Shown here in pieces: positions 583 through 4,613 of a stretch of DNA of 16,256 nt. The notes below the pieces were generated by a model. That model was not told the origin of the DNA and did no database searches. It saw only the letters and a program-made list of their open reading frames with translations. Positions within the stretch are counted from its first letter, which is position 1; each line of letters opens with the position of its first letter. The DNA is from Ignisphaera sp. (lineage in GTDB: Archaea; Thermoproteota; Thermoprotei_A; Sulfolobales; Ignisphaeraceae). The stretch lies in NCBI GenBank assembly GCA_038821645.1, contig JAWBDT010000015.1:30948-47203 (forward strand), given 5' to 3'. The position numbers and the translations under genes were made by a program.

Positions 583-661
583 TGGCGGGCCCGAGGGGAT
601 TTGAACCCCTGACCACCGGCTCCGAAGGCCGGCGCTCTATTCCTGGCTGAGCTACGGGCCC
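583..661 (-). tRNA. tRNA-Arg (anticodon UCG), intronless, CCA encoded
   Basis: Reverse complement folds as a cloverleaf: GGGCCCG/CGGGCCC acceptor stem, GCTC/GAGC D-stem, CCGGC-CT-TCG-GA-GCCGG anticodon arm, AGGGG-TTCAAAT-CCCCT T-arm, ending GCCA. Confidence 0.97.
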
Positions 662-1136: not shown

Positions 1137-2039
1137 CTACTTATTGATATATTTCTCTTTAATGTAATTAAGTATTGAGAGGGTAGCTACTATGGCTTCT
1201 TCTGTTCTTATATTTTCGACTCCTTGTCTAGGTACAAAGTTAACGATATAGTTAGCATACTTATCGATATCTATACCCTCGTTTATCGCTATCTCGTCTA
1301 CATCTAGGTAAGTTCCTCCAAAGACTACTAACACATTATGTTTATTTCTAAAATCATCTACAATATAGTTCTCTAAATCGTATAACGGTTTACCCTTCTT
1401 TGATGCTACAATAATTAGATAACCATTCTTATACACAAAATCAAGCATCTCTTTCAAAGAACTTATGCTCTGCACCCTATATCCCCAGTAAATATCTAGA
1501 GACTCTCTATCAACAATCTCTACATAATAATATCTGCTATCTTCATGAACTATCTCTACAGTAATCCGCGTATTTACACTAGGGCATCTACCTCTCATTA
1601 CACCTTTCTTATCTAGACCAAGCTCAATTAAGCATTTACTTTCTGACCTACTAATAACGATACCCTCACGATATTGTGTATCAAATATCTCTGGAGGAAC
1701 ATGGTGTGGTGTTTTAAGTGGGGGTAGAAGTCCCACATACCTTAATTCTTGAGTAATTGGTACAACGATTTTCTTCATATATGGTGGAACCTCCATATAG
1801 TTGAGTACGCTTTGAATAAATCTTACATGATCAGCATCTGTATCTGGATCTCTGTATATGAATATATTTTCGACACGAAATATTGCAGCAGCTCTACCTA
1901 TAGATCCTACCTTTAGTGTCTGTTCACGTAGAGTCTTTGCATCTAATACTACTGATGCTGGTATAGCTATAGATATGAATGGTTTTGTTCTAAGAGGCCT
2001 CATGTACCTTCTATGCACATCTACTTCATCTATCTTCAT
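1137..2039 (-). CDS. SPOUT-family RNA methyltransferase (DUF171/MTH1/C9orf114-like, with OB insertion)
   Basis: 300-aa ORF with ISIAIPASVV, IGRAAAIFRVENIFIY, LNYMEVPPY, LRYVGLLPPLKTPHH, YWGY, VVFGG and NFVPRQGVENIRTEEA, all typical of this family. Confidence 0.92.
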   Translation of the reverse strand: MKIDEVDVHRRYMRPLRTKPFISIAIPASVVLDAKTLREQTLKVGSIGRAAAIFRVENIFIYRDPDTDADHVRFIQSVLNYMEVPPYMKKIVVPITQELRYVGLLPPLKTPHHVPPEIFDTQYREGIVISRSESKCLIELGLDKKGVMRGRCPSVNTRITVEIVHEDSRYYYVEIVDRESLDIYWGYRVQSISSLKEMLDFVYKNGYLIIVASKKGKPLYDLENYIVDDFRNKHNVLVVFGGTYLDVDEIAINEGIDIDKYANYIVNFVPRQGVENIRTEEAIVATLSILNYIKEKYINK

Positions 2040-2056
2040 CTATCTACAACCTGAAA

Positions 2057-2084
2057 ATCTATAAACTTGCCACAGTTTATAGAT
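2057..2084. promoter_or_regulatory. Inverted repeat forming back-to-back TATA boxes (bidirectional promoter)
   Basis: ATCTATAAACT-tgccac-AGTTTATAGAT has perfect 11-bp arms. Each arm reads TTTATAGA outward, about 20-30 nt from the SPOUT ATG (2039, minus) and the C box (2108, plus). Confidence 0.65.
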
Positions 2085-2107
2085 ATCTATTAGTGATATA
2101 GGCCTAG

Positions 2108-2166
2108 ATGATGATCCCTTCATGCACTGAATACGTAATGAAAATGATGTGTGCTGGGATACCTGA
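2108..2166 (+). ncRNA. C/D-box methylation guide sRNA (#2)
   Basis: ATGATGA(C, 2108-2114)-TCCCTTCATGCA-CTGA(D', 2127-2130)-13 nt-ATGATGT(C', 2144-2150)-GTGCTGGGATAC-CTGA(D, 2163-2166). Both guides are exactly 12 nt. Confidence 0.88.
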
Positions 2167-2206
2167 GAATCTCAATATTATCTCCATAGCATAAATACTA
2201 ACAACA

Positions 2207-2214
2207 TTAATAAA
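2207..2214 (+). promoter_or_regulatory. TATA box for the H/ACA sRNA
   Basis: TTAATAAA lies 24-31 nt upstream of the hairpin start at 2238. Confidence 0.5.
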
Positions 2215-2237
2215 GAGTTATACAAAATACAGTTAAT

Positions 2238-2314
2238 GCCCCCTGTGGCCAGACTCGTGTGAATATGATCCATAGGGTGATAATGATCACGAGATCTCCG
2301 CAGGGGGTACAAGA
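2238..2314 (+). ncRNA. Single-hairpin H/ACA pseudouridylation guide sRNA with K-turn
   Basis: 11-bp basal stem GCCCCCTGTGG(2238-2248)/CCGCAGGGGGT(2298-2308) is followed directly by ACA (2309-2311). Internal pocket CCAGA/ATCT, upper stem CTCGTG/CACGAG, and TGA...ATGAT K-turn elements are present. The top of the pocket is 15 nt from ACA. Confidence 0.82.
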
Positions 2315-2355
2315 ATCTCATGGTATAGAGAAAATCTATCAACACTCTTTATTCA

Positions 2356-2790
2356 CTAACCTATTATGGCAATAGGCTGTCCAATATCAATGAAGCTTTT
2401 CTCTTTTGCTAATATCTTCTTTATCTTACCGTTAAAGGGGCTCTTTAGCTCTATCATCATCTTCATAGATTCTATAATCGCTATAGACTGACCTTGGCTA
2501 ACGCTATCACCCTCATTAACAAGAAACTTTACGAGTCTTCCAGGTATATCGCTACGGATAACCATACCCTCCGGCTCTAAATCATTTAAAGTTTGTTGAG
2601 ATATAGATTCAGTAGCTATAATATCCGATCTTTCTATGCTTTCTCTTGCTATATTGCTAAGTAGCTCTTTAGTTACATGAATCACATATTCTCTATCCCC
2701 AATTCTAGCTACATAGGTATCCTTCTCTTTCTCATATACCTCTACCTCATATTTTTTATTATTGATAACAACAGTGAGCTTTGTTCCCAT
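2356..2790 (-). CDS. Biotin carboxyl carrier protein (biotinyl-domain subunit)
   Basis: C-terminal biotinyl domain (IRSDIPGRLVKFLVNEGDSV...IIESMKMMIELKSPFNGKI) with the MKM biotinylation motif. The N-terminal VVINNKKYEVEV segment is typical of carrier subunits. Confidence 0.93.
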   Translation of the reverse strand: MGTKLTVVINNKKYEVEVYEKEKDTYVARIGDREYVIHVTKELLSNIARESIERSDIIATESISQQTLNDLEPEGMVIRSDIPGRLVKFLVNEGDSVSQGQSIAIIESMKMMIELKSPFNGKIKKILAKEKSFIDIGQPIAIIG

Positions 2791-2980
2791 TACCAGTACC
2801 TACTCAGTGATGAATTTCCGGAGAGATATATAAGATTTAATATAGCTGTTCAAAAACCTATGCACATAGCATTATATCTTCTATTAAGGATCTTAGAAAT
2901 CTATATCCTTGGAGACCTACTACAGCTCCCTACTCCATATATCAATCATAAGAGTTGCATTAGCTAATACAGATACTCTT

Positions 2981-2995
2981 CAAAAGTCTTAAATA
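2981..2995 (+). promoter_or_regulatory. Putative BRE/TATA of the carboxyltransferase gene
   Basis: CAAAAGTCTTAAATA lies about 35-50 nt upstream of ATG 3030, with an SD-like GAAGGT before the start. Confidence 0.4.
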
Positions 2996-3029
2996 GTTGC
3001 CCTCAACCATTATCTAGAAGGTATTAGTA

Positions 3030-4613
3030 ATGAGCTTAACTCAGGAAGGTACACGTAGAGAAATTCAAGAGCTTAGAGAAATGATCAACAGAGCTAGAAT
3101 TGGTGGTGGACGTGAAGCTATAGAGAAACAACATTCTCAGGGAAAGCTTACAGCAAGAGAAAGACTTGATATACTGTTTGATGGTGGAAACTATATAGAG
3201 ATAGACATGTTTGTTATGTCTAGAGCTACAGAATTCGATATGGATAAAAAGAAGGTTCCTGGAGATGGTGTTATTACAGCATTTGGTAAAATTGATGGTA
3301 GATATGTTGTAGGTATTGCACAAGACTTTACAGTAATAGGTGGATCTGTAGGAGAAATGCATGCTTCAAAAATTGTTAAAGCTCTTCAATATGCTTTAAG
3401 TGTAGGTGTTCCAGTAGTTTTCTTAAATGATTCTGGTGGTGCTAGGATACAGGAAGGAGTAGACTCTCTTAAAGGTTATGGAGATATATTCTATATGAAT
3501 GTAGCTGCTTCTGGTGTTATTCCACAAATCGCCGTGGTCATGGGTCCTTGTGCTGGAGGTGCTGTATATTCACCTGCTTTAATGGATTTCATCATAATGG
3601 TCGAAAAAACATCATACATGTTCATTACAGGTCCTCGTGTCGTTAAAGCAGCTTTAGGTGAAGAAGTAACAGAAGAAGAGCTTGGGGGGCCTCAGATACA
3701 TATGTCTAAGAGTGGTGTAGCGCATTTTGTTGCTAGAGATGATAAGGAAGCTATATATCTCGTTAAAAAACTCTTGAGCTATCTACCATCAAACAATATG
3801 GAGATGCCGCCAAGAGTAGAGACAGGTGATGAGCCAGAGAGGATTACCCCATCTCTAGACACCATAGTGCCTGAAGATACTAAAAAACCCTACAACATGT
3901 ATGAAATAATAGAAAATGTTGTAGACAGAGGATCATTTTTTGAGATTCAAAAAGAGTTTGCTAAAAACGCTATAGTTGGTTTCGCACGAGTAAACGGCTA
4001 TGTTGTTGGAGTAGTTGCAAATAACCCAATGTACTACATGGGTGCACTCGATATAGATTCTTCAGATAAGATAGCCAGATTCGTAAGATTTTGTGATGCA
4101 TTCAATATACCGATAATCACATTCGTAGATGTACCAGGGTTTGTACCTGGTACATATCAAGAGCATAGAGGAATCATAAGGCATGGAGCTAAGATAATAT
4201 ATGCTTATAGTGAAGCCACAGTACCTAAGATAACAGTAATCGTGAGGAAAGCATATGGAGGTGCCTACATAGCGTTAGGCTCAAAACATCTTGGAGCAGA
4301 CATGGTTTTTGCATGGCCTACAGCAGAAATAGCTGTTATGGGTCCTGAAGCTGCTGCTGAAGTCATTTGGCGCAAGAAGCTTGACGCTATAACTGATCCT
4401 AGTGAAAGAGAGAAGATGTTACAAAAACTTGCAGAAGAATATAGAGAGAAACTTGCGAAACCTTATTATGCTGCTTCTAGAGGTTATGTCGATATGGTCA
4501 TAGAACCTAGCGTAACTAGACCGATGATAGTAAAAACACTAGAATTCTTGTTGTCAAAGAGGGAAATTAGGTTAAGGATTCCACCTAAGAAGCATGGATT
4601 GATGCCTCTATAG
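3030..4613 (+). CDS. Acyl-CoA carboxyltransferase subunit (PccB / methylmalonyl-CoA decarboxylase alpha family)
   Basis: 527 aa with GKLTARERL, QDFTVIGGS, DSGGARIQEG, GPCAGGAVYSPALMDF, FVDVPGF, IIRHGAK and RKAYGGAY, ending PPKKHGLMPL. Confidence 0.95.
   Translation: MSLTQEGTRREIQELREMINRARIGGGREAIEKQHSQGKLTARERLDILFDGGNYIEIDMFVMSRATEFDMDKKKVPGDGVITAFGKIDGRYVVGIAQDFTVIGGSVGEMHASKIVKALQYALSVGVPVVFLNDSGGARIQEGVDSLKGYGDIFYMNVAASGVIPQIAVVMGPCAGGAVYSPALMDFIIMVEKTSYMFITGPRVVKAALGEEVTEEELGGPQIHMSKSGVAHFVARDDKEAIYLVKKLLSYLPSNNMEMPPRVETGDEPERITPSLDTIVPEDTKKPYNMYEIIENVVDRGSFFEIQKEFAKNAIVGFARVNGYVVGVVANNPMYYMGALDIDSSDKIARFVRFCDAFNIPIITFVDVPGFVPGTYQEHRGIIRHGAKIIYAYSEATVPKITVIVRKAYGGAYIALGSKHLGADMVFAWPTAEIAVMGPEAAAEVIWRKKLDAITDPSEREKMLQKLAEEYREKLAKPYYAASRGYVDMVIEPSVTRPMIVKTLEFLLSKREIRLRIPPKKHGLMPL

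Follow-up and report, generated by a model that had tools for sequence, protein, structure and literature searches.

A candidate box H/ACA guide RNA conserved across a family of uncultured hot-spring Thermoprotei

Box H/ACA guide RNAs are few in each archaeal genome, evolve fast and are mostly absent from Rfam and from genome annotation. Those that have been described share a recognisable architecture. In archaea, the ACA box is placed at a distance of 14-16 nt (PMC7991803), while another account sets the kink-turn (K-turn) 5-6 bp above the pseudouridylation pocket, with ACA 14 nt from the target uridine (PMC2651775). An RNAMOT descriptor for such RNAs sets minimum lengths of 7 bp for the lower stem (H1) and 5 bp for the upper stem (H2), and lets each loop strand measure 5-11 nt (PMC2377435). 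Two classic H/ACA RNAs, sR435 and sR115, are described from Sulfolobus islandicus, a cultured member of the Thermoprotei, and sR435 is reported to have eight targets, which it recognises mainly by its 3' guide through bulged pairings of 8-11 bp (PMC11077068).

A second well-described system is Pab19/Pfu19 of Pyrococcus, which guides modification of 16S U1017 within a segment said to join in A-site formation (PMC2377435). Reconstituted Pab19 modifies Pyrococcus abyssi U1017 in vitro, and the in-vivo test was masked by a reverse transcription pause (PMC2377435). The interaction is non-canonical, in that T-G-C stays unpaired and C1019 is dispensable (Muller et al. 2008, PMC2377435). In S. islandicus, a pseudouridine at 16S U1009 has been equated with P. 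abyssi U1017; its guide is the atypical sR136, whereas the P. abyssi site is guided by a classic H/ACA RNA (Li et al. 2024, PMC11077068).

A 74-nt hairpin at positions 2238-2311 of the forward strand resembles these RNAs in a 16,256-nucleotide stretch of Ignisphaera sp. DNA (the whole stretch that was analysed, hereafter the window). It is very probably an archaeal box H/ACA guide sRNA, because it is conserved across a family of genomes, its stems covary, its ANA box keeps a fixed spacing, its apical part carries tandem G-A motifs and its genome encodes the partner proteins. As such, it is a previously uncatalogued member of a known RNA class, and the known picture of the system is unchanged. 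Like sR435 and sR115, as described in PMC11077068, the hairpin combines an upper stem and K-turn candidates with a sizeable internal loop, with a lower stem and with an ACA box. It shares with Pab19, as described in PMC2377435, the single hairpin and the ANA box, and its K-turn candidates parallel the K-turn of that RNA.

A first-pass annotation of this DNA had proposed a novel H/ACA guide RNA with a K-turn, built on a G+C-rich basal stem, an ACA at the base of that stem and an internal loop, all of which are seen at 2238-2314. The forward strand of this interval folds at -39.2 kcal/mol, compared with -20.9 +/- 3.2 kcal/mol for 200 dinucleotide shuffles (z -5.71), none of which folded as well. 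The opposite strand reached a z of only -2.55. The H/ACA identity proposed in that annotation is strongly supported by what follows, while the bounds it gave to the pocket and the target it predicted are not.

The absence of the RNA from Rfam was also borne out, both for the window copy and for two relatives. At the gathering threshold, Rfam release 15 recognised no H/ACA family in the window and only a tRNA gene (586-661, minus strand, 67.6 bits). Permissive scans of the window copy and the two relatives gave chance-level matches only. For instance, HgcG, one of the archaeal families of the same RNA class (HgcG/Pab40, RF00064), scored 6 bits (E 8.3) on a relative's copy, and the window copy matched no H/ACA family at E <= 10. 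A full-text literature search with general H/ACA terms returned nothing on this lineage, which is not proof of absence.

Homologues of the hairpin are widespread in the family. Matches at the level of blastn (E <= 0.001) were found in five of 41 related genomes, the window's own included, and compensatory changes in the upper stem are already visible among these copies. A covariance model built from four copies (R1) gave a match at E <= 1 in 24 of 26 genomes from the GTDB family, and the remaining two are 89% and 72% complete. Forward-strand matches at E <= 0.001 occur in 23 family genomes, with one significant copy per genome. Three further alignment rows were reverse-strand echoes and were dropped, and the match in G019 (20.6 bits, E 0.06) was excluded from every alignment. 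The model is also strand-specific in the window, scoring 98.6 bits on the forward strand against 24.1 bits on the reverse.

Outside the family, order-level sampling under strict filters (108 genomes for R1, 37 genomes for R2) matched only one genome, G052. The hairpin found there (L063, G052:C5:214878-214951, minus strand) belongs to a different family of the order and looks like a classic H/ACA RNA, in which a tandem G-A sits immediately on the upper stem, of 7 bp, and an ACA follows 15 nt after that stem. Its guide strands differ, and the model probably picked up another guide here by its architecture.

Covariation defines two stems. The lower stem, P1, joins 2238-2245 to 2301-2308 by 8 bp, and the upper stem, P2, joins 2254-2259 to 2288-2293 by 6 bp in the window. 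A seventh P2 position (2260/2287) is T-T in the window and C-G or T-G in most relatives. Across 22 sequences (21 family copies and that of G052, with L054 and L055 excluded by the E-value cut), changes on both sides were found in 7/8 pairs of P1 and 6/7 pairs of P2, with 96% and 96.8% of cells paired, respectively. Overall, 13 of 18 pairs changed on both sides, as against 7.0 +/- 1.3 in shuffles, and 94.1% of cells were paired, as against 82.7 +/- 1.0% in column shuffles; none of 500 shuffles equalled the observed value in either case. Sliding the partners by 1-3 columns reduced pairing to 32-59%, in an alignment that was fitted to the model and so favours structure, a bias that the slid controls carry as well.

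RNAalifold, run on the same alignment, predicted only a P1 of 8 bp and a P2 of 7 bp with an open loop between them. The first-pass annotation had drawn an 11-bp basal stem, of which the lower 8 bp are conserved and covarying. The top three pairs are another matter, with double changes in 0/3, 82% pairing and no place in the RNAalifold structure. Since these three pairs neither covary nor are predicted, the pocket is taken to comprise 2246-2253 and 2294-2300, that is, 8 + 7 nt, and the earlier 5 + 4 nt version proves too small. Measured against the RNAMOT-type descriptor, the RNA has a P1 of 8 bp, a P2 of 6 bp (7 bp in relatives) and loop strands of 8 and 7 nt, all within its bounds.

The two pocket strands have evolved differently. 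The 5' guide strand (2246-2253, TGGCCAGA), lying between P1 and P2, keeps a G-C-C/T core across the 23 family copies and otherwise differs by lineage, its variants including GGCCAGA, GGCCAG, GGCTGG, GGTCTGG, GGCCGA, GCGCCGA and GCGCCGG. The 3' guide strand (2294-2300, ATCTCCG) has a nearly invariant TCTC core and reads N-TCTC-(C/T)-(G/A) in 22 of 23 copies, the first base being A, G or T; the exception is L055, with TCTCAA. Conserved unpaired loop strands framed by covarying stems point to base-pairing with something in trans. This combination of a fixed 3' guide and a drifting 5' guide offers a case for how little pairing Cbf5 particles need.

Directly 3' of P1 lies the ACA box (2309-2311), 15 nt past the last base of P2 and thus within the archaeal range of 14-16 nt. 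The first-pass annotation had read this 15-nt spacing in the window, and it recurs exactly in 23/23 family copies as an ANA triplet (ACA in 18, ATA in five). The homologues show both the stem covariation and the box on which that annotation had staked its reading.

The apical element (2260-2287) contains T-G-A motifs, a terminal hairpin and two nested tandem G-A motifs, either of which is a K-turn candidate. The motif next to P2 consists of T2260-T2287, G2261-A2286 and A2262-G2285 with a 3-nt bulge at 2282-2284, and sits 6 bp above the pocket. The K-turn that the first-pass annotation proposed is matched by this motif and its distance in the window, but the complete tandem occurs in only 4/23 family copies. 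Beside P2, an A is kept as the second base of the 5' side in 23/23 copies, and on the 3' side ATG stands ahead of the last base in 22/23. The second motif lies nearer the apex, where G2267/A2268 oppose G2279/A2280 and are followed by CC/GG (2270-2271 with 2276-2277). Its pattern, GA-N-SS-loop-SS-N-GA, is found in 21/23 copies, about 12 bp above the pocket. The non-canonical stem of this family-wide motif presumably faces the apex, going by the strand rules for K-turns. At about 12 bp it does not fit the 5-6 bp rule, and the assignment of the K-turn between the two G-A motifs is ambiguous. The family thus provides a case for which K-turn register L7Ae uses.

The proteins of an H/ACA particle are encoded in the same genome. 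Cbf5 (432.6 bits), Nop10 (87.5 bits) and Gar1 (37.7 bits) all score over their curated cut-offs, as do two L7Ae-family proteins (103.7 and 60.2 bits). The Cbf5 match (locus L082, G000:C11:37987-38976) runs through one in-frame TGA, which could reflect a split gene, an intron-bearing gene or an assembly error. In S. islandicus, Cbf5 is encoded by two exon fragments, and guides of that species were accepted by P. furiosus proteins (PMC11077068).

By analogy with solved and reconstituted archaeal particles, the hairpin would assemble with these proteins as follows. A single-hairpin H/ACA sRNA, probably about 3 nt longer at its 3' end than 2238-2311, would be transcribed from its own promoter on the forward strand. 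The PUA domain of Cbf5 would hold the 8-bp lower stem and the ACA box, L7Ae would bind one of the tandem G-A motifs as a K-turn above the 6-7-bp upper stem, and Nop10 and Gar1 would complete the particle. The strands 2246-2253 and 2294-2300 would then pair with the substrate sequences flanking a uridine, and Cbf5 would isomerise that uridine to pseudouridine. In the minimum-energy fold of the isolated RNA the pocket is shut, and the first three bases of its 5' strand are able to pair with 2298-2300, a pairing that does not covary. This partly self-paired pocket would have to open, as is described for sR563, whose pocket also pairs with itself in the free RNA (Li et al., PMC11077068). Specificity would come mainly from the nearly invariant 3' strand (TCTC-C/T), which would read a GGRGG purine run just 5' of the target U, with the 5' strand (core GGCC) as the more variable partner. 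A comparison by description only suggests a likeness to sR435 here, in that specificity seems to rest mostly with the 3' guide.

The target is the less certain part of this proposal. The first-pass annotation had predicted AGAT-T-N-TCTGG and asked for a search of rRNA and tRNA. No such site exists in the organism's own 16S and 23S rRNA with up to one mismatch, nor, under a relaxed contiguous rule, in rRNA or in 46 tRNAs called by ARAGORN, and the prediction is not upheld. Genome-wide, 40 sites fit 4 + 5 bp, a raw count scattered across contigs. The tRNA set used for the target scans is imperfect because several ARAGORN calls are doubtful, being implausibly long (230, 412 and 1,510 nt). A call labelled 'tRNA-Tyr' may represent a tRNA whose intron sits at a non-canonical position.

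Scans with the revised pocket covered 14 distinct guide variants and about 1,230 uridines, under scoring rules that disagree on the top site. The best three scores in real rRNA (7.70, 7.52 and 7.27) were equalled by the best site in 16, 21 and 30 of 60 dinucleotide-shuffled rRNA sets, respectively. Since no rRNA site beats the shuffled controls, complementarity alone identifies no target, and the RNA may be an orphan guide, as had been suggested. No canonical rRNA or tRNA site with bipartite complementarity around an unpaired U-N was found, which does not exclude function, because pairing is weak in known guides as well, sR435 among them.

An anchored score allowing 2-4 unpaired bases placed 23S U2536, 23S U1041 and 16S U1007 on top. 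Several candidates were set aside. 23S U2536 is the best canonical site with a 2-nt gap, but in 4/10 genomes retaining the guide a C replaces its U, and in G004, whose guide is near-identical, the flank has changed. Uridines in the variable loops of tRNA-Gly, tRNA-Lys and tRNA-Met fit the guides of some lineages only and score 0 for others. The targets of the S. islandicus RNAs were compared by hand, and the window's guide differs from both sR115 and sR435 in this respect. For pre-tRNA-Tyr U35, the Sso1/sR115-type target, the guide does not pair with the flanks in either of the two tRNA-Tyr calls made by ARAGORN. The counterparts in the window's genome (G000) of three sR435 sites, 16S U928, 16S U941 and 23S U2626, offer at most 5 bp to the 3' guide and 0-2 bp to the 5' guide.

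By precedent only, the most plausible target is 16S U1007 (own numbering), a tentative choice that may well be wrong. It is preferred because of the published pseudouridine, its T-G-C context, the kept pairing at U1011 and the match between unpaired and variable guide positions. Its context in G000 is GGAGG-T-GCA-TGGCC (T1007-G1008-C1009), and the site is invariant in 9/9 aligned relatives. A flexible scan with the window's guide alone puts U1007 first (5 + 7 bp), and the site ranks third of about 1,230 uridines by the anchored multi-guide score and fourth of 1,233 by duplex energy. In the proposed pairing, 2295-2299 would pair with 16S 1002-1006 and 2247-2251 with 16S 1011-1015, with 3-4 substrate bases left unpaired. 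Opposite 16S U1011, guides of the window's clade have A and the others have G, giving A-U or G-U, so that pairing is kept. The two guide bases beside P2, which are unpaired at U1007, are exactly the variable ones.

At U1007 the window's guide pairs by 5 + 5 (up to 7) bp and those of relatives by 4-5 + 3-8 bp, which is not above what shuffled rRNA gives. This pairing leaves four substrate bases and 2-3 guide bases unpaired, and anything beyond 5 + 5 bp requires the opening of 2245-2246 with 2300-2301. Guides of other genera pair more weakly, with 5 + 4 bp, and that of L055 with 4 + 4. Among nine assemblies from the other five genera, none contained 23S rRNA. As a rough estimate, with about 1,230 uridines in play, one of some 11-25 published archaeal sites would fall within the top 3-4 with a chance of 3-8%.

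U1007 appears to be the same site as the published U1009 and U1017, judging by numbering and by the quoted T-G-C rather than by an alignment. The guide strands of the window are complementary to Pab19-type flanks, GGAGG and TGGCC, and extra substrate bases would stay unpaired after the target U, as in the interaction proposed for Pab19 (T-G-C; PMC2377435). The window's proposed pairing leaves four such bases unpaired and that of Pab19 three. The 5' guide of Pab19 is 15 nt long, against 8 nt for the 5' strand in the window, and Pab19 has an additional 5' stem-loop (PMC2377435). Functional equivalence with Pab19 is offered as a hypothesis, the two RNAs having been compared by description rather than by sequence. 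If U1007 is the true target, archaea would be retaining the same helix-34 pseudouridine by means of guides that look unrelated, of the classic type in Pyrococcus and the window's lineage and atypical in Sulfolobus (sR136).

That the hairpin is an H/ACA guide serving another substrate, or several, has a chance not far below even. The strongest single competitor is 16S U852 (GGGGAG-T-A-CGGCCG), which ranks first of 1,233 by duplex energy (mean of -16.5 kcal/mol over 14 guide variants), is the top 16S site in the canonical scan with a 2-nt gap and is invariant in 9/9 aligned relatives. At this site, however, A2251 of the window's clade would face a C, so that the pair is lost or a bulge is needed, and the first base of the 3' guide pairs only if it is T, where the window has A and many relatives G. 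Moreover, no reported pseudouridine was found for U852, and it is absent from the eight S. islandicus 16S sites. 23S U1041 scores 7.52, second in the anchored scan, and keeps its U in 9/9 aligned relatives; in the window it pairs by 6 + 5 bp around three unpaired bases, but, by hand, the 5' side yields just 4 bp for guides ending in GGCCGA. Neither U852 nor U1041 beats shuffled rRNA. Several weak sites might instead be addressed through the 3' guide, which is nearly invariant while the 5' guide drifts, as Li et al. describe for sR435 (PMC11077068). The poor pairing at the three sR435 counterparts argues against this version.

A further reading, rather unlikely, is that of a lineage-specific H/ACA particle of unusual geometry, in which L7Ae would sit on a K-turn about 12 bp above the pocket, its non-canonical stem facing the apex, and a 5-nt pyrimidine 3' guide would do nearly all the substrate selection, addressing several purine-rich, possibly non-ribosomal sites instead of a single canonical rRNA uridine. 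More improbable still is a conserved K-turn RNA that guides no pseudouridylation, having another L7Ae-binding role or acting as an H/ACA-like chaperone of rRNA folding. The lack of a statistically supported target, the self-pairing of the pocket in the free RNA and the non-canonical distance of the family-wide G-A motif would all suit such an RNA. Against it stands the specific H/ACA architecture, namely an 8-bp stem with an ANA at a fixed 15 nt, an open 8 + 7 loop and a 6-7-bp stem.

Returning to the H/ACA guide reading, the genomic setting indicates a gene of its own. The hairpin lies in a 316-nt gap separating two minus-strand genes, one for a SPOUT-type RNA methyltransferase (1137-2039, PF02598) and one for a biotin carboxyl carrier protein (BCCP; 2356-2790). 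The BCCP gene is convergent with it, and its stop codon stands 45 nt away. These flanks are common to only 4/24 loci, which make up the window's subclade. At L036, L038 and L040 the RNA adjoins genes for a phosphoribosyltransferase and RtcB, and at L047 those for a phosphoribosyltransferase and Translin (six neighbouring ORFs scanned, L047 included). A comparison of loci L033-L055 with window positions 1137-4613 indicates that the H/ACA gene has moved. Most copies (19/24) overlap no ORF of at least 70 aa; the five overlapping ORFs are mechanical and, except for that of L038, lie in G+C-rich relatives. Its sequence is preserved in changing genomic surroundings, which suggests an independent gene.

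The intergenic position close to the convergent BCCP stop codon might suggest an element acting in cis on an adjacent gene, be it a terminator, an attenuator or a UTR hairpin, or else a palindromic repeat of the dispersed kind. Such a reading is very improbable, given that the RNA is kept where the neighbours differ, that there is one significant copy per genome, that the model score is specific to one strand, that no T-run follows the hairpin and that the conserved loop sequences and ANA box are nothing a terminator needs.

Upstream of the hairpin, a TATA-like box, TTAATAAA, is found at 2207-2214 on the forward strand, at -31 to -24 from the first hairpin base. The first-pass annotation had pointed to this TATA, and an A+T peak coincides with it across the 23 family copies (0.90 at -30..-26, compared with 0.56-0.74 in adjoining bins), which sit in different genomic contexts. 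From its sequence and position, TTAATAAA may act as a promoter element. No reads matched the stretch in 3-5% of each of three raw-read hot-spring metatranscriptomes or in one contig set, a result that counts neither for nor against expression.

Taken as a whole, the locus adds a family-wide guide and its covariance model for an uncultured hot-spring family of the Thermoprotei. The gap also contains a well-formed candidate box C/D sRNA (2108-2166, forward strand) about 70 nt upstream of the H/ACA hairpin, with boxes C (2108-2114), D' (2127-2130), C' (2144-2150) and D (2163-2166) and two 12-nt guides. Its D' guide forms 11/12 Watson-Crick pairs with the organism's own 23S 2133-2144, predicting 2'-O-methylation of U2137, and Rfam snoPyro_CD scores it at 19.6 bits, below the cut-off of 45. 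A box C/D sRNA directly adjoins the Sulfolobus sR115 homologues Sso1, Sto1 and Sac1 (PMC2651775), whereas the candidate in the window stands at that distance of about 70 nt. The 3' half of the C/D candidate recurs upstream of the H/ACA copy in G010.
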